A stretch of 64,000 nt of DNA from Balanoglossus misakiensis (Eukaryota; Animalia; Hemichordata). Positions 20,159-56,410 of the stretch are shown here, in pieces. The position numbers and the translations under genes are program-made. The notes below the pieces were generated by a model, which saw only the letters and a program-made list of their open reading frames with translations, searched no databases and was not told the origin of the DNA. The first letter of the stretch is position 1; each line of letters starts with the position of its first letter. The stretch lies in the NCBI GenBank assembly GCA_040954595.2, contig CM082595.2, positions 2,651,943 through 2,715,942 of the forward strand, given 5' to 3'.

Positions 20159-22168
20159 ATGAGATCCTTCTTGTGCAGAAAAGTATCAGTCGTCTGCGTT
20201 CTCCTAATCCTGGGGATAACAACATCATCTGCCAGTCTCAATCCTTACACAGAACTCGGGGTTGAAAGAACGGCGTCATCGCAGGAAATCAAAAGAGCAT
20301 ATAAACAACTTGCTAAGGAATGGTAAGGATATCTACTCATTTTAATAAAAGCCATTCTCGCTATCGTTCCATGGCCGGTATGGTTGTTGATCTCGGATAT
20401 GATGTACATGTCATGTGTATATTTCTTTCACTGTGCATAATGATAGTGTTGGGTTTCCGATGCAGCGATCCAAGTATTCCGTGTGAAGACTATCTTTTAC
20501 GCCTAGGTTACCTCACCGTCCGGTTATTTAAGCCGAACGCTATCTTTATTTTCTTCTTCTCACCACTGAAGGTGTAGCATATGTTTCTAGTAGTACTGAT
20601 GATACTGATAGTGATATACTAGTAGACATTTGCCCTTTGTACAGTAGACGGCCAATCAATAACACTATGAATGCATTGTGTCCATAGTGTACCTGAATCA
20701 CAAAACAAAGCCCCTACTTTCACTTTCAGTATAATCCAGAAAGTACTGTTGGTCTGATGATAAATGCGCTCACACTGTATTGATAGAAATGATAGATTCT
20801 CATTCATAAATCTGTTCCTTGCATTCAATTATAGGCATCCAGATAAAAACAAAGATCCTGATGCCGCAGATAAGTTTATGAAAATAAGTGAAGCATACGA
20901 GGTAAGTAATGACTTGACGACAGAGACAAGTTGTGAGTCAGTGTAATTTGTGTTGCCATGGGAACACAGGTTGTTGAGTTGGAAATTGAAGGACAGTTGA
21001 TGAGTGGCCACCTTATTATGAAGAAATGTGACTTCCTTAACATCAGTATAGGATATCTCATGTTATTGCTGGTTAATAGGCAACTAAAAATAAATTTCAT
21101 GTCTTATTACAGATTCTCTCAGATGATCAAAAGAGGCAAGACTATGATCATTTTGGTTACACAGACTCTAGCAATCGCAGAAATGACCCCAACCCCTTTC
21201 ATGGATTTGGAAATCACTTCAGGAACTTTGACTTTGGCAATGGCTTTGGGTTCAAATTTGAATCCGGTCAGAGAGGAGGTAAAGATCAGCGTCACAGGAT
21301 CAACCTCAATGGTTACCAACATAACATTCTGCCAATAAGTCATAGGAAACCGTACCTTATCTTCATCACTGCGGACTGGTGTTTCTCTTGCAAGCAAGCT
21401 GAGGGGCCCTGGGAGGACATAGTGAAAGAATTAGAACCTTTAGGTAAGTAGAAAAAAATCAAGGCCCCCTAAGCAAATAGAAAAAAATGCTGCTAAATTT
21501 TAGATGGGCTGCTAATGCTGAACTGACCTTTGGTTAATTCCTACACAGGGATCGGTATGGCGGTTGTCAATGCTGACTATGACAGGCGTTTGCCGGATGA
21601 ACTTGGGATAGGCCGCATTCCAGCACTGGTAGCTGTCCTGAAAGGAAGAGTGTATCATTTCAAGAATTTCAAATCTCTGAATGTGAAATCTGTCAAAGAC
21701 TTCCTGCAAGGATTGTTTCCTACTGGACTTGTCAACATGGTAAGTTATATACACGACATATAAAATGCTGTAGTTTGTTTAGTTTGCAGAGGTAAAGCAT
21801 ACAGATACATCAAAGGACAATCATATGATAAGAATGTTACTTTTTCCCCCGAATGCAGTTACATGATAACAGCTACCAAGATTTTCTGAGTGGCTGGAAA
21901 GACAACAAACCCAGGGCCTTGCTGTTCTCCTCAAGAACCGAGGTGCCATTGCTGTTCCTGGTGGTCGCACTGGAGAATAAAGACAGGGTGGCCTTCGGCA
22001 TGGTTCCCAGGAGTAGTTTGGATACACAGGCTGTGAGGAGGAAGTACAATGTTGTCTCGTCGTCTGAGCCAACTCTGCTGATATTCAGAGAAGATATAGA
22101 GCATCCAGCTCATAGATTGGAGGTGAGATCTTGAGGTTTTGCCTGCTGCACACTGATTACTCCTTTGT

Positions 22169-27328: not shown

Positions 27329-29227
27329 CTAAAATTCATCATGAACACTCTTTGCATAGTTGAACATTTTACTGCTGACGAAGAAGTCATAGTTGACCAG
27401 AACTTCTTTCAGCGTCAGACGACCATCTTCATTGAGGTCTGCCACACCCAGGAGATGTCTAGCCTCACTCTCAGCATTGTGACGACTCTTTGGATCCATG
27501 TAAGACTGAGAAAATCAAAGAAGACGACAAAATATATTTTGTTCTTTCATTTGAAGGGATGCAGGTTTATGTAATATCAGACACTAGAGGGCGCACAACA
27601 GCTTACCTCCAATTCTTCAATTGTAACTCGGCCATCTTTATCCGTATCAATGGTTTCTTCAAATTCATTTTTTCTTTCTCTGACCCACTCGTCCTCCTTT
27701 GCCATTCGTTCAAGTTCACCTTCATGGCCAATCGGCAAGGACACAAATTCAATCAGTGACAACACCGAGTCGCCATCTTGGTCTGAACAGAAAAAAAAAG
27801 AAAACATATCAACATCAACTATTTTTTTCAACAGCAAGAAAGCTGGTAATATTCCAAAACTAGGAGTTCTCATCAACTGATGCTTAGCCCTTGCACCACT
27901 ATGGTTCAATCCAAACCCACTGTTTCCTATGGTAAGGTTGGACCTCTGAAGATGGAACTGGGGGTGATAGGGTTAACCTTGAATACCACTGTCCTTTAAA
28001 CTCACCTAGATCGTGTAAGATTTCTGTGACAAGTAACCGCAACATTCCTTTGCAATGTTCAGGGTGCTTAAAGGCCAAAAACTCGGGCGGAGTTAAACAG
28101 TTATCTTCATCTTCATCAGCTTGCTGCCATCTGTCTTGGTCGCGGTACAAATCATAGTCATCTGGAAATGTACATACAGGGATCATCAACCAATGAATGT
28201 GAGGTATTGTTTGTATAGCTGACAAGACTTGTGCTCTTCTAAGAAATGTACTGTCGTAAATACCCGGTATTAACATTTCTGAAATCTACAGTTTCATTTA
28301 CATACCATCTTCGTGGAGCTCAATGTTAAGGTCACCTTCAGCTGCTTTTGCTATGACCGGTTCATCGTAGCCTCTCTCTTTAAGAAAATATAATCGGTAC
28401 TCATCCCAAGTTATTTTACCTGAAATATATGACAGAAATACACATCCATTATTTCCATGTGGTTGATCCCATTTTCAGTGGAAGAGGGTGCTTGCCCCAG
28501 TGCAGAGCATAGTTAAAAGGACCAAAGAAAATTAGAGCAATCATGTGAAAGCAAATTACTTGCACTCACCATCTTTATTTGGATCAAATCTTGGAAATAT
28601 TTTTTCGTTTTCTTCTTTGGCTTCTTCAAAATGTTCCCTGGTTTTCATTGAAATCCATTCTGTGAGTTCTAAAAGACTCAGCTGGTTGTCTGCATTGGTG
28701 TCTGCCCTAGAATGAAAGAAGTATTGACCATATCAGTTTCTGTTTTCTTGACTGCTGTTGTATATCCCTGTGCAATGTATAATCATGTATTCACATATGA
28801 TTCAAGTTGTTTTTTAATCCCATGCTAAATAACAAATGCATACTTACTGTAAAAATATATCTTTTAATCTCCTATTTCCCTCTTCCCTACTGATCTCCTC
28901 AAAATCTTTGTGTTCGTTTCCTAAAAACACCTCCTTCCCGAATTCCTTATTGAGGTGTCCATCCCTTTCCAGCCTCACGCCCTCAATGTGGTCTGGTGGA
29001 AATGGTTTCTCATCGTCCCTGTCCCTTGGAAGAACATTATCCCGATCGTTTTTCCGCAGAAGTTGCGGATCCACTTCTTTCATTTTCCCATCCTTTTGAA
29101 GTTTTGTGTCATTTATGGGTTTGCCCAACGGGCACTGCAAAAACGCCACGATCAGTATCACAACTGCGCAAGTCCTGGATAAGTTTCCCAACGCTGGCCA
29201 GTGACAGCATCGCGCATTCGCCGTCAT
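27329..29227 (-). CDS. SDF4: 45 kDa calcium-binding protein (Cab45, CREC family), multi-exon
   Basis: Signal peptide, the Cab45-type motif PPDHIEGVRLERDGHLNKEFGKEVFLG and several EF-hands (DEDEDNCLTPPEFLAFKHPE, DQDGDSVLSLIEF, DTDKDGRVTIEEL). The C-terminus is VHDEF* with the stop at 27329-27331. Confidence 0.95.
27884..27976. mobile_element. ~90-bp piggyBac-like MITE copy
   Basis: ttagcccttgcacc ... ggtgatagggttaa. TTAA/CCC termini and the internal sequence are shared with copies at 42140 and 49092. Confidence 0.65.
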
Positions 29228-31949
29228 TATCACCAAGATGTGCCAATTTCCCGATAACGACACGACCTGTCGTCTCAAAACAACCTAATCACGGTTAAAC
29301 TCAACAGCTGTCCCGGGATAACACGCTGGATATCGGCGACGCAAACACAGAATAACGCAACAGCCTGACAGCGACTGACGTGTCGTATGTGTCCCCACTG
29401 CTAGGTTAGTTCGTTTGTTTGGCACGTGTTTTCTCCCACGGGCAATACAAATATTAGCCCAGTTTTCTGTATAACGTTAGTGTACTTCACACACTTTTAA
29501 ACTGTTGGAAAATGGTAGGCGTTGGCCGCATATAACCAAATTCAACGAAAGCTTTATCTCCCTAAGAAAGGGATAACATTGATATGTAGGGGAGGTAATT
29601 CTAATCATTGTTTTTCAAACCGCAAATGCATTTGTAGCAATGCGAAACCCACCCGTATATTAATTTTAAACACGTTGAAAACGACTACACGATATCGAGC
29701 TCATCAAAACCATGAACAGAATGACAGAGGTCTTTTCCGTCACATCACCTTGAATCTGAAGCTAAGAGACGAATTAGTCAAGGCGTATTCTCAACCGAAT
29801 ACAGTTCAGCATTGATTTATCTTATACAGTTTAACTTCCAAGGTTGTTCAGGCAATTGTCAATTCATAGCCTTTTCTCCTATTCCCCGTCGAAAAAGCAG
29901 TTCGGACGAGATAATGAATTTGATTAAACATAAAGATACTCCTACTCGAAGAAAAGTCCCTTATTAAAAAATAAAGCTAAAAGCGTGACAATGGTGTTAT
30001 TCTCTATTCGTCATATTACGGATAAAATAAGTACAGTTTCCATGGAAACTGAGCATCCCCGTTAAGAAGGCGCCAGTACCCAGAAGAGGTTATAATCACG
30101 TGTGTTTATATATAGTTTAATGACATCGGGTATAAATATATATAGTTTAATTATGCACGGTCGTCAATGCAAATTTAACCACTGTTACCATGGAGAATTC
30201 AAATATAGTTTTAGTGGGTGGCACACGCGAAAAAGTGCGTCACCAAGTGGTCATTCGAACCCATATACACATAATATCACAGGCGATCGTATACGTCTTT
30301 TCACATTATTTCAAAGTTTCAAAAACATTAATAAAGTTACATTTGTCTACTTCAAGTTGTTAGGCCCATTTTGCGTGTAGAAAAAATATCTTGGGCGTGG
30401 GCGGAAGAAGTACTTTTGGCCGCCATTTTGATTAATGTTACCTTAACAGCTCCATCTTTCCAGCATTACAACGGTGAGCGAAAACAGAATCCTACAATTA
30501 CCGATTCCTCCAGAGAGTTAAACTCGTTTACTGCAGCGATAACGTGTTTCATTCCCCGATTCATCTCTGACAACTTGTCGACTGGCAATAGCTCACAATG
30601 ATTCAAATGTCATCCCAATAGTCTTCCAACTGTGAATCAGGGTTCATAGCCTTTCTGTCAGACACAAAAATCGCAAAGCGCCGTGATGTAGTGGGCGTCA
30701 CATCGCTGCGTGCCTAGCAGTTCTGTATAGCAGACGGAAATGTCATTTCGTCTTATTCAGATTCCCGCGGGAAATTTTCGCATCCCGTTGCTTTAGCAGA
30801 AAAGTTAACGTGCAGGCAAAAAAAACGAAGGAAATCACCGAAGCCAATTCAATTTCCACCAAAAAGGTCAGTCAAAGTATCTCGCTGGGATAAAACTAAA
30901 TTCTGGCAGCACGGAGAGACATGCGCAAATGCACCAGTTGCCTGACTCACAGATCACTGAAAGGACACCCCCGGGGCGAACAAACCTCGGAGGGATCTAT
31001 ATGCCAGGGGAGGTAATTCTAAAACGACGAGTAGATTGCCATAGTTACGCCTCACCCAGGTGGTTATGCATCATTGTTTGCGCGCGCGGTCACTCGCTGT
31101 TGTCAATGAAACATAATTTTGAACAGCAAGTATCATACGTCATTGGGTGTCATATAGCCTTTGGATTGGTCGCAAATTGGTCCTAATTTTGTGAAAATGT
31201 CTTTGACGTGAAAATAATAATGATAATTACTGTTCGGTAAAATTGAAGACGGGAAACGTCTAGTCGTGAAACTAGCGGTTATTGTGCGTCATTTGCCTTG
31301 GTTGGACATTATATGTTTTTAAGAATGGCCAGAGCATCTTTTTTAGGTCTCAGCTCTTGCCTAGGCGTCGTGTCTCTTAACAAGATGTCATAGCGCAGAA
31401 CTTACGCTGTTTCCGAGAAACCTTTCACGGTTGCAATGAATACGTCAAGAGGCTTCATCTGGTTTAAGTGCCCACTTCAGTGAATTTGCCGCTGCCTGTA
31501 TCTCGACATATTCTCACAGTAGGCCTATAAGCGTCATGTGGTCGTGATGACCACACCTGAGTTTAGCGCTGCACGTGTTGATTGATTTCCCCCGTGGACA
31601 GAAGAAGACCATCGCATTTGCGGATAAAATGGCCACCCTGGACCGACCAAGCGACCGACCATACCTTTGTATTTTCTGCAGGCCTCGCTATAGTCTTGAT
31701 GTTTTGCATAAGCCTCTTTATGTGATACCAACCCTTTTAGAAGACAAGGCTTAAAACCCCCAATTTTAAAATAAATGCATTCTGTCCGTTTTCCAAAACA
31801 CGATATCTAAAAAACAATATGTTTTATCTGCACTCGTTATATGATGTTATTTGTTTCAGGATGCTCCAAGGGCCATTTTTGGAAAAATGGCAATAAAAAT
31901 CATGGTTCTCATTCTGTGCTTGTAAATGTTTCACCGAGAAACCTGTTGG

Positions 31950-32060: not shown

Positions 32061-32612
32061 AGTCAAGGCCTGTCCGTCCTGCCTTGACAGAGAAGCTTAG
32101 CGAGCTTTGAGCTTCAGGCGGTTCTGTACAGATCTGAGATGTGATAGATAACGCCTGGGTTTCTCACGCTGAGTTTCGAGGGCAAATTTTGATTCTGGTG
32201 CGTATTAAAATTGGTGGGGGTGAAAAATGTTCGCATGGGGGGCCGACACATAATATTTTCCATAACAGAGAGTCAATCGCATAAAAGTCTGCAGATAGAG
32301 TCGAAAGAGCGCAGAAGCAGATGTCTGCAGTCGTCATGGTATCTCACCGGTTGCCACGGCAATCCTCCGCGATCTCATCCCAACATACATTATATGCCTA
32401 TGTTCGCTCAAAAATCGTAATTGGAGACGTGCGCATTTTTCTCTTGCGACACAAATTGTACTCTGAGTGAAAAAGTCGTTATATTACTATTCTGTGTCAC
32501 CTATAATTGACAGAACCCTCCCGGGATTCACAATGACGTAGACATGGCATTGGTAGAGTTGAGTTTATTTCAAAACAGTTATTGTGGACAAAATTGGCAA
32601 TGAAAAATAAAA

Positions 32613-32770
<158 letters not shown>

Positions 32771-33056
32771 TTGTGTATATTGATGGATGGATGTGAATCT
32801 ACCTATAGGCTATACGTCATAAGATTTACATTAATATGCTAGTATAAACTGACCTGCTTTTAGAACAGTATATCGGTTATCCGGTAAACATCATTGTGTT
32901 GTCAGCCACGCGTACTTATCCCGCAGAAATGTCTCAATATTACAACTCCTTGATAATCAACAACAACGTCCAAGATTCTCATTTATGACGCATATTTTTA
33001 ATATTCATATAGTGGCCCTCTGTTGCTTTGGATTGAAGATTAGCTGTTTTGTTCAG

Positions 33057-33535: not shown

Positions 33536-34921
33536 GTAAGCGCTACGGATGATTCCGCCACGAGATGGATTCACATAAGACAGTGAGTGAATATAACGCT
33601 CAGTTAAACCGCAAAATAGGCGTCCTTGTATACACAGGATCAAACTGACGTTCACCGCGCCAGTATCAACATATATCAGCTTACTTCATCGTAATATCCT
33701 GCCATCAAATCTTGTTATTTTTAACCGACGTACTATAAGTCCACATTTCAATTACCTTTTTTCATAAAAATATAATTTATATACTTCTGCCGAGAAGGCA
33801 TGTTCGACGAGGAAAACATGTTGCGTATTTAGCTATGATCACATATGCGTTTACAAAAAATGTCTACACGTACATGGATTACACTTTTGTTTCAATTTGC
33901 GGGTGTTTAGAGCAGAAGACGGAACGTTAATCCTTGCATAAATGGTTTATGCATTTCTGCAAATGCTCACCCCTGCTTTGAGGTTGTTAAAACCTTCTAC
34001 AGCCTTGATTCCCTTCCATTGCCCTAGGATAAAAACGCGTGACGCCAGCAATAACGTCACAAGCTTTACAATTTGACAAGCTTGCGCAATGTTTTGACGT
34101 TGTTGTTGTAGAAAACTAGTCCGAATGGATGGTAGTCAAATGAATCTCTGTGTTTTTGGCCTTGTAACAGACAAACAAGACCGTCTTCGAGATGCAGGCC
34201 TACATGTATATCCAAATTTCGTTATGAAAATGGCAAATTTGCCTCCGTCTTTCAGCTCGCTCGTTACTGTCAGAAGTCTTTACACTATCCTTGAAACGTA
34301 GTGATTTTTCCCTACGGGACCTTATTATCGTATTTTAATAATTGACGATTTCTCACAGTGGATGATGGAGTAATCACCGGACCATCAAATTCAAAACACA
34401 ACTGCCATTGACTACTATTTCCCCCGCCATTGTCAGCATAAAGTTTCATTAAGATAGCGAGTGTGAATATTCGAATGCACTTTACTCGATTCCATTTTCG
34501 AGCAGCAGGAATTTTAAGCGTGGGGTTTCACAGACTTCTCTGTGCGAGGCATCTCCGGTCACGGAAATATTATAAAAGCCTTCGCGGTTCCTTTGTATTG
34601 TCCCCGAGTAGAGAGAACACGATGTTTCTGCCATTAGTGCGAGGAAAGAAAAAACATGCTGTTGAAATGTGAAACCAGATCTCCGTTGCCTTGGTTTTGG
34701 GGCAACAAACAGTCACGGCGGGCGTGTTGCCATGGTTTTTGGGTACTAACAAACAGTAGGTGCCGTTGTTTCAAATTAAAGGGTTTCCTGTACTATTCCT
34801 GTTTAACGGAGTAAAAAATATCTCGTTTTCTTTTTTTTAGAACGAAATAGGAGAATCGCCAAAAGGGTTCGCTTACACCAGATGGTATATAAATGGAAAC
34901 CAATCGATGGACTGAGTGAAG

Positions 34922-37900
34922 ATGGTTCAGGAGGTAGACTGTACGTATCATCAGCCGGGCGCCAACTGTTCTGCAATCAACGACATGGATTCTAACTCAA
35001 CGGAGATTCCGAACGCCGCAATCGTGTGGAATGACCCGTTCATCGTGATTACCCTTTCGATCTGCTATTCACTGATTATATTTTTCGGGTGCGTCGGGAA
35101 CGCCATCGTTATCGCTTCTCTGGCGGTCCACCGAAGAATCTTCAAAGTCTGCAACGCGGTGCTCGCTTCATCCGCCGTTGCCAACGGACTCGTGTGTGTC
35201 GTCTGCGTGCCCATCAGCTTCTCGGCGCTTTTCAGGCGTTTTGGAGAGAATTTGTACTATCATGATATCAGAGAGACTGTGTTCATCCTGATTACCACTG
35301 CGTCGTTCTCAAGTATTGCTATCTTGATGGTGGAGAGAAGTCTCGCGACTCGACAAGGCACCCGCTGTCGTTTGAACTTCCGTCGTGTAGTAAAATTGAC
35401 GGTGTCGGCTTGGCTCGCATGCGGGTTACTCTCCGTGCTGTCAGTCACACTCGATTCTTCTCCAATCTTCTTCGATTTACTGAACTACACGCAGAACAAT
35501 TGGTTCATTTTGCGGCCAGGGGCCATCAAAACACATTGTGTTTTGTTTTGCTTTATTTTCGCCGTGGCAACAACATTGTTTTGCGTCGGAACAATACGCG
35601 TAAATCTGAAGAAATATAAAGTCGAAAATGTCGCCCTTCACGTCTCGGGAGCTGTGCCGGGAGGCTCACAAACGAAAACTGGTAAAGTTGCTGCCGAGGA
35701 AATATCGGAATCGAACGGAACGCTTGCATCACCGGACGTCAAGTCACGATCAGGCATAGATGTGCTCACAAGGGACCTGAATTCTCAAACCTCCGAATCG
35801 ATATCGTTAAAATCAGACCTCGACGGCCCCTCCGCCGATACGCTGGGGGCCATGTACAGTTCGCCGAAGTCTCGTCGTAAGAGCTCGGTCACTCTCGGAC
35901 GGCGAATTCTGAGACGTCGAAGATCGTCCAACAATTTAATAAATGCGCGTCGGCATTCTCGTGTCTCGATGATCTCCAGCTCGCTGCCGTCGATCGCCGA
36001 CGAAGATTTAAGACAGCGCGACACGATTCGGCGCATGTCCCGTCGGATGTCGCGAAACTCCCGCGACAGCATCTCGTCCACAAAGTTCATGGATGAAGAT
36101 TCTCTCTCCGGGGTTCTGATCGGTGATGGCGAACCACCTGTTGAATCTGCTCGAGATCGTCGCCAGCGATGTATGTCCCGTAAACGGTCACGCGTATCGA
36201 TGTCCTCGCTAGGCCTGTCGTCGATCACCGACGATAGCGACAGCGAGCACGACGAAGTTGACAACGCGACGGGCAAAGTCAAGCGGTACAGTAAGCGGAG
36301 ACACGAATCACGGAAGCCAGACTCGGGTCATTGGGGAGCGGGGCACGGAGAATCGGAATCAGACTACTCGGACGCTTCGCTGACGGCCGTCGCTGGGTCC
36401 TTCCGATCCTCCGTGCATTCTCACCGACACGGAGAAAAGTTCTCACGCCTCTCCTTCACCTCGTCAAATCTAGCCTCGATCGTAGACAGCGAAACCGACT
36501 CACCCCAAATCGAACCCAAGTTAACAGACCACTCGCGATTTGGAGACAGCAAATCCATTAGTACGGACAGCGGTGGATTCAATTATTCATCTCCCCATTC
36601 GTCCGATAAGAAGGAAGAGATGGAAAACCGTGAATCGCGTGCAGAATCTAACTTTGTAAGATCTTTTTCCACGACCACTGAGTTTGAAAACACGGAGCTG
36701 AAACTTAGAAGAGATACTATCGAATCTTTCGGATCTTTATTCACGGACGATTCAATCTCCTTGAGCATGTCAATCAGCCACGGTAACTCTACCCCAGAAG
36801 AGAGTCATTTCAGTCGCCTGAGCGTGGTGTGTCGCATCGGTTCCAAAGAGGATAAATTCAGAGAACGTCTTCAACAGGTGTCCGCCATGAATTCGAGAGG
36901 AGGGGCCTCGAGAGGGCGCTTGAGTCGTGATTTGGGGGCACGGGTCGAAGGAGGACTCGTTGGAGTTACTCCGGCATGTTACGACTTTAAAATGAGCGAG
37001 GGAGATGATAACAGTCTGCGTTTCGACAAGGAAACAAACGTTGCGAACACTGGCAGTTCCTCAAACATGGCAACGCCAGCGTGTTTCAATTTCAAGATGG
37101 ACTCCAATGACGTCACCAGTCCCAGGCAACTTCGAAAGGAAAGTACAGACTTCGGACCAAACGGAGGTACAACACCGGCCTGTTATAACTTAAAAATGAG
37201 CGAGGCGGACTCGGACAGTCCGAAACTACCACCGCCAACTCATAAAGTAATAAATGTAGCCTCTCGAAAAAGCGACTCGTCCATAGCGTCAGATACCGAC
37301 AGAAAACCGAAAGTATTTCGCAAGAAACACAACAGTATGACGTCCCTGGTGTCTCTCGCCTCCCGGACGAGTCTGTTCTCGCGACGAAGTCTTGCTACTC
37401 CCATCTGTTACAATTACAAGATGCGAGACAGCGATACATCGAGTGTTTCGCGATATGTGACCGACATATCCGACAAGACCGGGCAAACGAACCCGGCATT
37501 CGTGAGTGATGATAGGCGATCCGCTGTCATGGCAACGCCCATGCTGTTTAATTTCAAGATGAGCGAGTCGGACATCAGCAGCGTTCGCTACAGTGTCGAG
37601 AGTTACGGCGGTTCCCGGGCTGGTTTCCGACTCGAGAAGGGGGCAACGCCTGCTTGCTTTCATTTCAAGATGCACGACAATGATATCAATTCGCCGCTTG
37701 GCGACGACGACGCGATCAACATGGACGGACAGCAACGGCGCGTCAGTATAACTTCACTGGGCGACGGCCAGAACGACGCTGGTGGCCCGACGCCCGTGGA
37801 ACACAGCGTCATGATGAACATCGGTATTGACGAAGCGACAAAAAAAGGCTCCTTGCAGCCGGGCTACCTGGAGGGGCGCCCGCCGCTTGCAACAGCAGCA

Positions 37901-38353
37901 TCGTCGTCATCCGGCAACAGCGGCGAAAGTACAGAATACAACACCGCCCAAGACACGACAACAAGCACAACTACCTCAGCAAAGTCAAAATCGAGTACAA
38001 ACATATCCACCATTGTCAACTACTCTCCCACTTCTCCGCGAATTCTCTCAGCTCAACCAGAAAACTCACCCGCCAAGCCAGATTTACGCCTCATTCGCGT
38101 AACCATCATCGCCAGTATTTCATACTTCATCTGTTGGTTTCCATGGATATGCGTCGCCGTGGTTACCTCCTACCAGGGCTATACATACTCCTTGAAGATA
38201 TTTCTTCGCGTGACATTGACCATCGGCTACGTTGCCTCGGCAACCGTTCCTTACATTTACGGCCTTGGCAACAAACACGTGATAGCCACATTTAGGAACA
38301 TCTGGAGGCGTGTTAGGCGACATGAACAAGTGCAAAATTCTGAATCTATGTAG
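34922..38353 (+). CDS. Orphan rhodopsin-like (class A) GPCR with giant intracellular loop 3, intronless CDS
   Basis: 1143-aa ORF from ATG 34922. It has N-glycosylation sites at the N-terminus (NCS, NST), TM1 GCVGN, TM3 end ERS, TM4 W and TM5, then ~825 hydrophilic residues, then TM6 CWFPW, TM7 VPYIYG and helix 8. Confidence 0.93.
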   Translation: MVQEVDCTYHQPGANCSAINDMDSNSTEIPNAAIVWNDPFIVITLSICYSLIIFFGCVGNAIVIASLAVHRRIFKVCNAVLASSAVANGLVCVVCVPISFSALFRRFGENLYYHDIRETVFILITTASFSSIAILMVERSLATRQGTRCRLNFRRVVKLTVSAWLACGLLSVLSVTLDSSPIFFDLLNYTQNNWFILRPGAIKTHCVLFCFIFAVATTLFCVGTIRVNLKKYKVENVALHVSGAVPGGSQTKTGKVAAEEISESNGTLASPDVKSRSGIDVLTRDLNSQTSESISLKSDLDGPSADTLGAMYSSPKSRRKSSVTLGRRILRRRRSSNNLINARRHSRVSMISSSLPSIADEDLRQRDTIRRMSRRMSRNSRDSISSTKFMDEDSLSGVLIGDGEPPVESARDRRQRCMSRKRSRVSMSSLGLSSITDDSDSEHDEVDNATGKVKRYSKRRHESRKPDSGHWGAGHGESESDYSDASLTAVAGSFRSSVHSHRHGEKFSRLSFTSSNLASIVDSETDSPQIEPKLTDHSRFGDSKSISTDSGGFNYSSPHSSDKKEEMENRESRAESNFVRSFSTTTEFENTELKLRRDTIESFGSLFTDDSISLSMSISHGNSTPEESHFSRLSVVCRIGSKEDKFRERLQQVSAMNSRGGASRGRLSRDLGARVEGGLVGVTPACYDFKMSEGDDNSLRFDKETNVANTGSSSNMATPACFNFKMDSNDVTSPRQLRKESTDFGPNGGTTPACYNLKMSEADSDSPKLPPPTHKVINVASRKSDSSIASDTDRKPKVFRKKHNSMTSLVSLASRTSLFSRRSLATPICYNYKMRDSDTSSVSRYVTDISDKTGQTNPAFVSDDRRSAVMATPMLFNFKMSESDISSVRYSVESYGGSRAGFRLEKGATPACFHFKMHDNDINSPLGDDDAINMDGQQRRVSITSLGDGQNDAGGPTPVEHSVMMNIGIDEATKKGSLQPGYLEGRPPLATAASSSSGNSGESTEYNTAQDTTTSTTTSAKSKSSTNISTIVNYSPTSPRILSAQPENSPAKPDLRLIRVTIIASISYFICWFPWICVAVVTSYQGYTYSLKIFLRVTLTIGYVASATVPYIYGLGNKHVIATFRNIWRRVRRHEQVQNSESM

Positions 38354-39166
38354 AAATTAAAGATGGTCGCTAATCTTTGTGTTATTTTAAAAGAAAACCA
38401 AGACTGTGACATGCACCATGTATTCTTCTGTTTTTAGACTCCTTTCACTCTATGTAGATATAGCAAAGAACTGAAAAGTTTGAAGAACTGTCATTTATCT
38501 GAAAATCTGTCCCCGAGGCGCACACAACAAAAGCTGGTCGAGTTTACATTCGAAAGTTTTACCTGACACTAAAATTATATTTACATACCCATACTTTCAA
38601 CACATCGGTAAAATTAACCCTAAAGCACAATCATGTAGGTTTTAAATATTGCACATATAATTCACATATCCATATAATACTCATATGTTTTTTGATAAGC
38701 GTTTGTATTTTGTCGTTCGATTTATTTTGATAGTCACGTTCACTTCGGATAGACAATAGCTTTGAGTTTTCTAGATATGGGCCTGCATTGACAGGCTGAA
38801 TGCACACAGTATTATAAACAGTAAGAAAGGAGCGAATTAAAATGCGAAATGATAGAGTATTGTCTGGTTGACATCTAGCCTATTATAGCTGTTTTGTACA
38901 TGTATTTGAAGTCTATTTTTCACGTCAGTATATTTTGAATAAACATGAACATTTCAATCGAAGTCATTTGTCGCAAATGATATGCATGCGTTTAAGAGAG
39001 AGAGAGAGATGTGTGTGTTTATATATAGAGAGAAAGATATGTTTTATATACTGTAAGAAAACTTGATTCACCCCCACCTCGTGCCCCCACCCCACCCCCG
39101 TTCAACAGTGGACTTGTCACTGGAGTGCGCCACTACACGACAAGACTAGTAAAGGAGACGCTCTCC

Positions 39167-39275: not shown

Positions 39276-49382
<10,107 letters not shown>

Positions 49383-51046: not shown

Positions 51047-53167
51047 ATGAAGATTTGGAATCTCCTTGTATATATATGTGGATTGTATCTGCAATCAGAA
51101 GGGCGGCTAGTTACAGTATGTGGTTATATTTTTATCAGTTAATAATGGACAGTAAACTGGAGACTGCTGTTACCAGTAATTGATTGTGCTCACAACCTGT
51201 GAATTTTTGTGTGGATAAATATATCCATCTGTCGTGTGTCGTGATGTAGATGGGCCAGGGCATGTTGTCTTTGAAATTTGCACAGACATTTAATGCATTA
51301 TTCAACGGTATCGTTTCGTATGTTTCTCATTTGCACAAAATGTGACAAATCTGTCTTCTCATCTTTCAGAAGTTCTCTGAAGAAGCTGAACGTGAGTTTG
51401 GTTTTCAAAATGGTGGTGGTGGTCAAACCTGTCTTTGATAGATTTTTAATTTACATGTACTTAGACTTATAAACGATATATATTTCATGATATATTATTA
51501 TCGGCTGCCTGAATATATTGTAGTATTAAAAGGTCATTAAATGTTAAAAGTGTTAACATTATTTAGATTGTGTATGCTTTCTCAAACCATATTAGACACG
51601 TTGTGGTGATGGAGAAAAAACTAACATCATTTGTTTTGCAGAATCACACGATGTCAACAGAATACGTAGAATAACATCCGGGCGAGAGGCAGAGAAACAT
51701 GCCTATCCATGGATGGTCTCGCTCCAGTTGGAACTCTATGGCGAAAGCAAGCATTTCTGTGGTGGTGCATTGATTGGTAAAGAGTGGGTGCTGACGGCTG
51801 CTCACTGTATGTATGGGTAGGTGGTTTCATTTAGATCTTGCTGAAGAGAGTTGGTAACTGAGGGCTTACAGGGACAGACAGACAGACAGACAGACAGACA
51901 GAAAAAGGCAGGTGCACTGAGTGGAAGGGAACAAGACTCAAAGAAAGTTGTGTGGTTGAAACAATGTACAAGTACATGTTTTGTATAAAATAGTGTCTGT
52001 GGCAGTGATGCTCACATATATTCTTCCAGTGAAAGCTATTTCACACACTCCATTTCTTTACTTCAGAACTCCCACAGACTTCATGGTAGTGGTTCTAGGT
52101 GACCATGACCTCGGAAAGGATGAAGGCACAGAACAGCGACTTGTACCTGCAGCCATCTACGTCGACGATGATTTCAACGGCAACACCTGCGTTGGTGATG
52201 TTGCATTGATACAATTGGAGGCACCAGGTGCAGAGTTGAACGATTACGTCCAGCCCATCAAATTGGCCACTAAACAGAAACAGTCTGGCAAATGTGTGGC
52301 TGCTGGTTGGGGAGCATCTATTGTTGATGGTAAGTACGGGCTCATCATGTCTTCACAGCAAATATGATACACTGGACAGTACATATAGAATTCGTCACAT
52401 CATACCAAAGTGTCTGAAATATTATTGCTCGTAGCTAAACTATTGAAGCAAAAATTCTGAGCTTGCATTTTCCCCAATGATTAATTAAACTTTATACTGT
52501 GACTCTTATTTTAACACCCCTGTAGCACTGATTTGCCATTCTTGAGCACTTGCTAATAAACTGATTAAAATAATTAAAATTGAAAGGAAAACTGATGCAA
52601 ACAATAAGATACATTTTGTTTTTTCTGAAACACAGGTGAAACAAGTAACATTTTGGAAGATGCTACCCTCGACGTGATTCGAAACAACGTGTGTAAAACA
52701 GTTTGGGTTCAACAGGTGATATCCGGTTCCATGATGTGTGCAGGGAGTGGTGAATCTGGTATATGTTCGGTGAGTTTGGATTCGAGGGTTGGGGTAGAGG
52801 TCAGGGGTACATCGATCATGTTTGCAATGGTACCTGCCCAGTCACGCGAGATCTCTCAGGGTCTCATGGAAGTTCGGGAAATGGTCTATTGATGGTAATT
52901 ATTTGTTCATTGCAGGGAGACAGTGGTGGGCCACTATTTTGCCGTGAAAATGGTGAATGGGTCGACTATGGGATATCTAGTTGGGGTCCTCAGGAATGTG
53001 GCATTGATGGTGTCCCTGATGGTTACACTCGAGTTAGCAGTTACTATGACGACATTATGGGTGTTATCAATGAATATAGTGTCTTAGATGATAGGGACAA
53101 TGAACGGAAAAGCATAGATAAGAAAAAAGGGAGGAAGAGAAAATCTTTGAAGTCAATCACTGAGTAG
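51047..53167 (+). CDS. Secreted S1 (chymotrypsin/elastase-like) serine protease, paralog 1
   Basis: Signal exon MKIWNLLVYICGLYLQSEGRLVT (51047-51115), 22-nt exon 51370-51391, then RIRR/ITSG...HFCGGALIGKEWVLTAAHC, GDVALIQL and GICS|GDSGGP. The catalytic triad is intact and there is a basic C-terminal tail. Confidence 0.92.
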
Positions 53168-54330
53168 AAATTGGTCGATCGAATATTTGCTTCATGGATG
53201 TCAGGTAAATGAGGCTCACAGTTCTTGGAACCAGCTGAGGATAAAAAGGTCGATTAATACGTCAGAGTAAAAACATTCTCCACCGTTTCCCAGTTCAATA
53301 CGTCATTGATTCATTCACTTAAATTCCTTGCTATCTTGAAATTGCTGCTATGACAAACACACAATTACAAAGCTTTTTTTATAGCAATGAAATATATAAT
53401 ATGTTTCCAATAATAATCATCCATTATCAAAGTTTTACCCAATAATTGCATTATGAAGAAGTCTTAACATGAAAACTCAGCTACTATGGTACTACCGGTA
53501 TATTTCATTTTCCAAGCATGAAACTGTATTATACCCCCTATTTCCCTTTGCTCTAAACAAAGTTCAATACTCAAAGGTGTCTTGTTAACATCTCTTATCC
53601 AGGCATTGTACTCACTGCATTGCCTCGGTGGTAGCTGATACCTTCCTTGTCAAATAGCAACATTAAACTACAGATTTTCCTATTCATATCTGTGACATAT
53701 TGCATAATATTTACACGTGGATTTTCTGATTTATTATTGCTATGGTTATTAAAAATAAAATTACAAAAAGCTACAAAAACCTGAGGTATCCCTCAAACTG
53801 AAAACCACTGGCACAAATATTCCTGTACTTTTAATATGGCATCATATTCCGGATGTGCCTTGCACTTTAAATCGCTTTACATTCCACGCTCTAAGCGATT
53901 CACTGGAACGAGAATAGATGAATCACTTAATAGCCAGATTCGATTGATTAATTGTCACGGATGGCGTATATTACTTGCAAGGCGAAGATTGAACACCACA
54001 AATTTGTTGACAATCAAAGCAACAAGTTTACCTCCTGGTGTCACAAGCAAATAGAAGGCACGGCTGAACTCCCACTCATACGCACATTTTTCCCGCCTAG
54101 GAAAGGTAAGTGCAATTTTTGCCACCTACTCTTTTTATCCAGTCTTTTCTGATGAAATATTCATCCAGGAAATATTTGTATGTTCAATGTATGTATGAAC
54201 CAAAAGTTAATAATTTCCTTTTGTCAGCTAGATGGCGTCAGCTCTAACTTCTCACTCATCGAGTCATGCTATGTGCTTGACTTTATTAACCTTTTATCTT
54301 AATTTTTTTATATGCAGAACACTGGTCTTC

Positions 54331-56410
<2,080 letters not shown>

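Follow-up and report, generated by a model that had tools for sequence, protein, structure and literature searches.

The window, which is the whole stretch of 64,000 nt of Balanoglossus misakiensis DNA analysed here, encodes a seven-helix receptor whose third intracellular loop (ICL3) carries one short motif six times. What keeps the copies alike, and what could they do for the receptor? A preliminary description of the locus had answered with a new docking motif, and we have followed this proposal through the gene, its closest relative and the systems that it resembles.

A divergent class A receptor with an outsized loop

34826..34840, + strand: pyrimidine tract followed by AG, 82 bases 5' of the ATG, likely a 5' UTR splice acceptor on sequence only
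34922..38353, + strand: receptor ORF P0001, a single coding exon for a 1,143-residue divergent class A GPCR
35609..38089, + strand: ICL3, about residues 230-1056, between hydrophobic segments five and six, rich in Ser, Arg and Asp

The open frame spans 34916-38353 on the plus strand, with the ATG at 34922 and 1,143 codons. The Pfam family 7tm_1 matches the protein with 49.2 bits (cut-off 30.5), and hydrophobic segments are found where seven helices would place them, five before residue 230 and two after residue 1056; six segments exceed 1.5 in hydropathy, while TM7 was placed by alignment to the histamine H2 receptor. Class A hallmarks include N1.50 (GN at 59), E-R3.50 (ERS at 138), W4.50 (W164) and CWFP at 1071. 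The receptor lacks D2.50 (Asn at this position), C3.25 (His) together with the ECL2 cysteine, P5.50 (no Pro in TM5) and the canonical NPxxY with N7.49, which reads VPYIY here and VPYAF in the acorn worm Ptychodera flava. Taken by these residues, the receptor is best classed as a degenerate member of class A, not as an outsider. GPR75 clusters ranked first in an Atlas feature search (0.94), with 159 of 256 features common to both, below the 170 usual for family members. GPR75 is described in the available text of bioRxiv 2025.07.30.667585 as having His3.49, a poorly conserved CWxP and a C3.25-ECL2 disulfide with CLPM; with Glu3.49, CWFP and no C3.25-ECL2 Cys pair, the receptor does not carry these hallmarks.

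In passages of PMC10033409, class A loops usually measure 10-240 residues, and long ones are reported to gate G-protein access; with about 830 residues, the loop here exceeds the upper end of this range more than threefold. The 7tm_1 fold is common to this receptor and those with other long loops. ICL3 is coding and under purifying selection, and the gene is intact. Among the allele differences listed (40 sites in 38 codons, from contigs of one sample that is possibly the window's own source and hence not independent), 34 codons of the whole ORF differ synonymously and four non-synonymously, and in ICL3 the counts are 27 and 0. For one contig, seven of 10 differences are listed, and parts of the gene are covered by one run only. 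The sample contigs also hold two in-frame 6-base insertions late in ICL3.

Several other features lie in the neighbourhood. On the plus strand there are a Nop14-like exon (1047-1529), a weak thioredoxin-like exon (21080-21451), MORN-repeat exons downstream of the receptor (40087-41435) and exons that belong to two or more trypsin-family domains (51960-56410). The minus strand carries exons of an EF-hand protein with a signal-like N-terminus and an HDEF end (27329-29284), which we take to be similar to SDF4/Cab45. A long two-base microsatellite occupies ~32530-32790, and a short dispersed repeat with a depth spike and many loose ends (38458-38522) lies directly 3' of the receptor stop.

Six copies of one motif

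36965..37015, + strand: motif copy 1, Thr683; core 9/9 identical in P. flava
37070..37120, + strand: motif copy 2, Thr718; core 6/9 identical, decayed in P. flava
37169..37219, + strand: motif copy 3, Thr751; the copy nearest to APC 15-residue repeat 1, with its core 9/9 identical in P. flava
37394..37444, + strand: motif copy 4, Thr826; core 8/9 and extended motif 16/17 identical in P. flava
37532..37582, + strand: motif copy 5, Thr872; core 8/9 identical, Cys absent in both species, head similar to that of APC 20-residue repeat 2
37643..37693, + strand: motif copy 6, Thr909; core 9/9 identical in P. flava

The preliminary description had placed six in-frame copies in the loop, and all are found, with their Thr codons at 36968, 37073, 37172, 37397, 37535 and 37646. 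It had drawn a motif of ~15 residues; the core stands as drawn, but the likeness runs further and takes in Asp at +12 and Ser at +15, both invariant, so that the motif reads T-P-x-C-[YF]-x-[FYL]-K-M-x-[DE]-x-D-x-x-S and covers 17 residues. Outside the array, the pattern was not found in the six frames of the 64,000-nt window. When residues 230-1058 were shuffled 20000 times, 19997 shuffles had no match, three had one and none had two or more. In leave-one-out profiles, the held-out copy scores 31.9-41.4 bits.

The copies had been said to be alike at the level of protein, and the codons bear this out. Between copies, synonymous sites of the nine-codon core are saturated (pS 1.03), with pN at 0.17 in the core versus ~0.7 in the flanks (0.73 and 0.70). 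Across the 12 copies of the two species, T, P, K(+7), D(+12) and S(+15) are invariant, and an aromatic F or Y stands at +4 in 11.

Conservation in a second acorn worm

Searching 1,835,955,588 cluster representatives with a profile built from the six copies returned one protein at E <=0.001, the 553-residue P. flava XP_070561034.1, which its source lists as uncharacterized and without a function. It is 58% identical to residues 616-1141 and keeps the six copies in matching order. It differs from the receptor in that it starts at the equivalent of Met616 and is without TM1-5, copy 2 is decayed, and Tyr7.53 is Phe. Met616 lies at window position 36767, and from there the P. flava record encodes only half of ICL3 with TM6-7; the short record may reflect a break in the annotation or a genuinely short protein.

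The alignment of the two proteins shows the motif cores to be kept far better than the spacers of the array (49/54 versus 71/141 identical residues, Fisher p 6e-8); the outcome by which the preliminary description would have been refuted, equal conservation of motif and spacers, is not seen. The stretch from TM6 to helix 8 is identical at 54/74 positions, below the motif cores; the constraint on the motif is thus stronger than that on the receptor's own membrane helices. Five of the six copies pair uniquely with their own P. flava counterpart (copy 2 ties), which argues that the copies have been kept one by one and were not homogenised. The copies are old, and each is kept in place in the second acorn worm.

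The earlier view that the spacers are unrelated needs correction in the light of the ortholog, where about half of the spacer residues and several near-invariant blocks are kept. Three conserved blocks outside the motif copies are the following.

36803..36877, + strand: conserved single block 5' of the array, residues 628-652; 8-9/10 identical per ten-residue block in P. flava
37727..37771, + strand: residues 936-950, a conserved basic-kinase site with Ser at +3 behind it
37907..37939, + strand: conserved Ser/Gly block, residues 996-1006; 10/10 identical in P. flava

A T-N-P-x-F sequence followed by acids (37484-37507, + strand) is also kept in P. flava and presumably resembles N-P-x-F sorting or PTB-type motifs. 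A PKI-like R-R-x-A 5' of copy 5 is absent in P. flava and was rejected.

The motif is known from these two species, a range to be read with the 50% clustering of the database in mind, which can hide close relatives. Word-index searches yielded no homolog for the array region against proteins of 628-2001 residues (a size range that excludes the 553-residue ortholog), for the whole protein among the best 7990 candidates, or for residues 30-615 against shorter proteins among the best 7995 candidates. No relative was found in the metagenome contigs.

A second repeat in the same loop

35957..36001, + strand: second repeat, copy 1, with the pattern S-R-[VL]-S-[MF]-x-S-x-x-L-x-S-I-x-D
36188..36232, + strand: second repeat, copy 2; allele differences are synonymous here
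36443..36487, + strand: second repeat, copy 3, same pattern

The first half of ICL3, beyond the coverage of the P. flava record, holds a second repeat whose triple score was reached by 0/300 shuffles in each of two shuffle schemes. Its end is similar to the PP2A-B56 consensus L-x-x-I-x-E as given in PMC5586252 (consulted in part), but position 6 is Asp instead of Glu in each of the three copies.

Putative kinase sites and a possible counter of phosphates

ICL3 is enriched in putative kinase sites. It has 13 [RK][RK]x[ST] sites against 4.0 expected (0/2000 shuffles), six of which carry S/T at +3 (1.0 expected), and 18 S/T-P sites against 9.2 expected, six of these being the motif's own. The D-x-x-S at the end of all 12 copies matches the CK1 consensus as stated in the available part of PMC4900676. 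Upstream of copy 4, S/T residues follow each other in steps of three.

37334..37399, + strand: eight-site S/T-x-x ladder, Ser805 to Thr826, which ends on the Thr of copy 4; a predicted CK1 relay

The ladder has eight sites in both species, a length reached by 168/20000 shuffles.

These sites give rise to an alternative in which each copy is a kinase unit made of a MAP-kinase site (T-P), a DEF-like dock (aromatic-x-aromatic) and a CK1 site (D-x-x-S), and the array as a whole would count phosphorylations and, through them, open the loop or promote the binding of arrestin and turnover. T-P in 12/12 copies, [FY]-x-[FY] in 9/12, Pro after S(+15) in 6/12 and the excess of S/T-P sites all agree with it. 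DEF docks have the form F-x-F-P, usually at a distance of at least six residues from the phosphosite; in none of the copies is the aromatic pair followed by Pro (0/12), a departure from this form, and kinase units leave the invariant Lys(+7), the near-invariant Met(+8) and Cys(+3) unexplained. A precedent is the C-tail of Drosophila Smoothened, which carries PKA/CK1 clusters according to passages of PMC4900676. Overall, we consider the kinase-unit account unlikely.

Less likely readings: lipid anchors, paired strands or relics

The preliminary description had also named palmitoylation of the motif cysteine as a possible switch. Developed into an explanation of its own, this idea makes the copies lipid anchors that, with a palmitoylated Cys and with aromatic, Lys and Met on the membrane, would pin the loop into sub-loops. 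Palmitoylated cysteines are often followed by aromatics and Lys; the order Cys-aromatic-Lys in the motif is of this common kind, and five of the seven Cys residues of ICL3 lie within copies. However, Cys(+3) is replaced in 3/12 copies; copy 5 has Leu or Met instead in the two species with all else kept, an acidic tail follows each copy, and the five invariant positions other than Cys exceed what an anchor needs. The palmitoylation proposal is weakened by these observations, and anchoring is an improbable account of the array.

Equally improbable is a mutual pairing of the copies as beta-strands, inside a single loop or across receptors, which would fold or cluster the receptor. Hydrophobic residues alternate at +4, +6 and +8, and a single-sequence AlphaFold2 model of the array alone draws five of the six cores as strands, which may be taken as a hint; the mean pLDDT of this model is 31.9 with no residue above 50, Pro at +1 and the acidic tails disfavour stacking, and spacer lengths vary (33 versus 41 residues). 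For the C-terminal half, modelled from two sequences, the pLDDT is 28.2, and neither model is informative on the fold. That the copies are a functionless relic of internal duplications, as the decay of copy 2 in P. flava might suggest, is largely refuted by cores that are kept where synonymous sites are saturated and are more conserved than the membrane helices, and we give this reading almost no credence.

Family searches and the likeness to APC

Profile and database searches had been proposed as a check on novelty, and the copies match no Pfam family (filters drop most hits above E 0.1). PDE8 appeared in the Pfam scans at E 0.21-0.27, under the cut-off, and PCNA was the best match of the motif profile to PDB sequences (E 0.15); both were rejected. 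The Atlas feature search gave no usable match to the array. No paper was found on GPR75 with an invertebrate ICL3, on repeated motifs in long ICL3s or on a GPCR loop that binds beta-catenin, in a search mostly of papers outside subscription; hemichordate-GPCR and long-ICL3 literature, judged by title or the start of the abstract, held none on this receptor.

The statement that the motif is unlike any family thus stands with regard to Pfam, but needs a qualification, since the motif resembles the 15- and 20-residue repeats of APC at a level below membership. APC was chosen for the comparison after the motif had been seen, and its sequences were checked in supplement 1 of PMC7402488; two supplement rows come from PMC5643146, and passages of PMC3529405, PMC3698177 and PMC13596306 provided general background on APC. 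Human APC 15-residue repeat 1, given in this supplement as DTPINYSLKYSDE, aligns to the motif without gaps at T, P, the aromatic +4, L +6, K +7, S +9 and the acid at +10. Copy 3 has 6/11 residues in common with it and the P. flava copy 7/11. In the same rows, sea-squirt APC 20-residue repeats 1 and 2 start with TPACF and TPMMF, five residues that recur in copies 2 and 6 here and in P. flava copy 5.

Ligands of beta-catenin follow the consensus D-X-theta-theta-X-Phi-X2-7-E, in which the Asp pairs with K435 and the residue that follows it lies against R469 or K508, as reported in the accessible text of PMC5342195; by register, the residue after the Asp is the motif's Thr(0). By residue count, the invariant Lys(+7) corresponds to APC K1030, which a passage of PMC13364647 proposes to pair with beta-catenin E462. 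Both E462 and R469 are kept in 27/27 animal beta-catenins aligned, a set built from metagenome contig loci L001-L118 (29 long frames over the armadillo domain, two near-duplicates left out) with K435 in the search pattern. The 12 copies have an aromatic five residues past the Asp position in 11 cases; in the X2-7 interval after it, Glu is found in 3/12 and Asp or Glu in 12/12. Where APC repeats have an acid at -1 or -2, none of the 12 copies has D or E, and the full beta-catenin consensus does not occur in ICL3.

By profile score, the likeness is statistically weak. APC 15-residue repeat 1 scores 9.7 bits against the motif profile (P per site 1.4e-5), three APC 20-residue repeats score 9.9, 5.0 and 0.3 bits, and the window's own copies 32-39. 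Among unrelated translations, 3/293782 sites reach 9.7 bits or more, and about a hundred such sites are expected per large proteome. The motif profile search of 1,835,955,588 representatives returned no APC protein at E 0.001, and the Pfam scans returned no APC repeat family. Because the defining Asp is absent from 12/12 copies and the scores are ~10 bits versus 32-39, the array is not an APC repeat; it may work like one.

A probable docking array for a folded partner

The reading that we prefer, with a probability of about 0.65, is that the six copies form a multivalent, phosphorylation-gated docking array for one folded partner. The preliminary description had proposed a multivalent linear docking motif switched at T-P; the invariant T-P of 12/12 copies fits this proposal, whose docking, phosphorylation and scaffold parts we infer. 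All six copies probably bind the partner together, each as an extended strand that would turn its hydrophobic residues at +4 and +6 towards the partner. In the register of APC 15-residue repeat 1, equivalent sites would be taken by Thr(0), Pro, the aromatic +4, the hydrophobic +6, Lys(+7) and the acidic tail.

The best candidate that can be named as the partner is beta-catenin, with phospho-Thr in the armadillo groove replacing the missing Asp, a tentative identification that we think would more often than not prove wrong. Since the Asp that pairs with K435 is absent, unmodified copies would bind weakly, and a phosphate on Thr(0), facing the basic patch of K435, R469 and K508, would supply the missing charge. 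Thr(0) would be phosphorylated by a proline-directed kinase or, in copy 4, by the SxxS relay, CK1 would add a phosphate at S(+15), and only with a phosphorylated loop would the receptor hold its partner at the membrane. The complex predicted for copy 3 (33 residues, unphosphorylated) and an invertebrate beta-catenin armadillo domain scored 0.02, without alignments and with a method unproven on peptides, and we count it neither for nor against this partner.

The fullest form of this idea is an acorn-worm class A receptor with an APC-like loop, in which six repeats, switched by phosphorylation of their T-P threonines, capture beta-catenin at the membrane and thereby control Wnt output or adhesion independently of Frizzled and of G proteins; as a whole, we hold it to be possible and rather doubtful. 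Even with another partner, the array presents the T-P-x-[CM]-F head of the APC 20-residue repeats on its own and may share the partner of the essential Thr in repeat 2. Repeat 2 is the closest of them to copy 5; according to part of PMC5727331, it fails to bind beta-catenin. In passages of PMC3983206 its Thr, matched by our own count from the alignment rows, is essential in APCL for a reason that the authors leave open.

Implications

The motif is unannotated and strongly selected, and the kind of system to which we assign it, a multivalent phospho-gated motif array on a receptor, is a known one. The constraint on the motif, together with the outsized ICL3, suggests that the receptor is built as a scaffold, consistent with the several G-protein activation residues that it has lost. 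Should the APC likeness be functional, the array would be a naturally occurring, phospho-switched form of the beta-catenin groove motif and would link a GPCR directly to Wnt signalling in a deuterostome group used for the study of body-plan evolution. If it is due to chance, the motif is still a new linear motif, known so far from two species, with six copies that can serve as bait. Peptides of the array could be used to find binders of the T-P-x-x-F head of APC repeats; the role of this head in repeat 2 is unexplained in the consulted part of PMC3983206, and the original APC structure papers may describe it.

Comparison with known systems

The PPPSPxS repeats of LRP5/6 combine proline-directed and CK1 sites as phospho-gated docks in Wnt signalling. 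Both systems are membrane receptors with several sites; the likeness is limited to S/T-P, and LRP5/6 are single-pass proteins. With the Smoothened C-tail, the receptor shares its seven helices and clustered basic-kinase sites followed by CK1 sites, but there the clusters lie in a class F tail and here in a class A loop. We know of no repeated T-P/aromatic motif in the Smoothened tail.

The closest comparison is with APC itself. Like the APC 15-residue repeats, the array consists of several copies in a disordered region, with T-P, an aromatic at +4, Leu or Phe at +6, Lys at +7, Ser at +9 and an acid at +10; unlike them, it has Cys rather than Asn or Asp at +3, Met rather than Tyr at +8 and an additional D-x-x-S, and is part of a membrane receptor. 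With the 20-residue repeats it shares the T-P-x-[CM]-F head, the alternation of Cys and Met between copies and CK1-type serines downstream, whereas the acidic prefix and the S-x-x-x-SLSSL phospho-tail of these repeats are missing from the array. The SxxS ladder, which in the APC 20-residue repeats stands behind each head, lies here upstream of copy 4.
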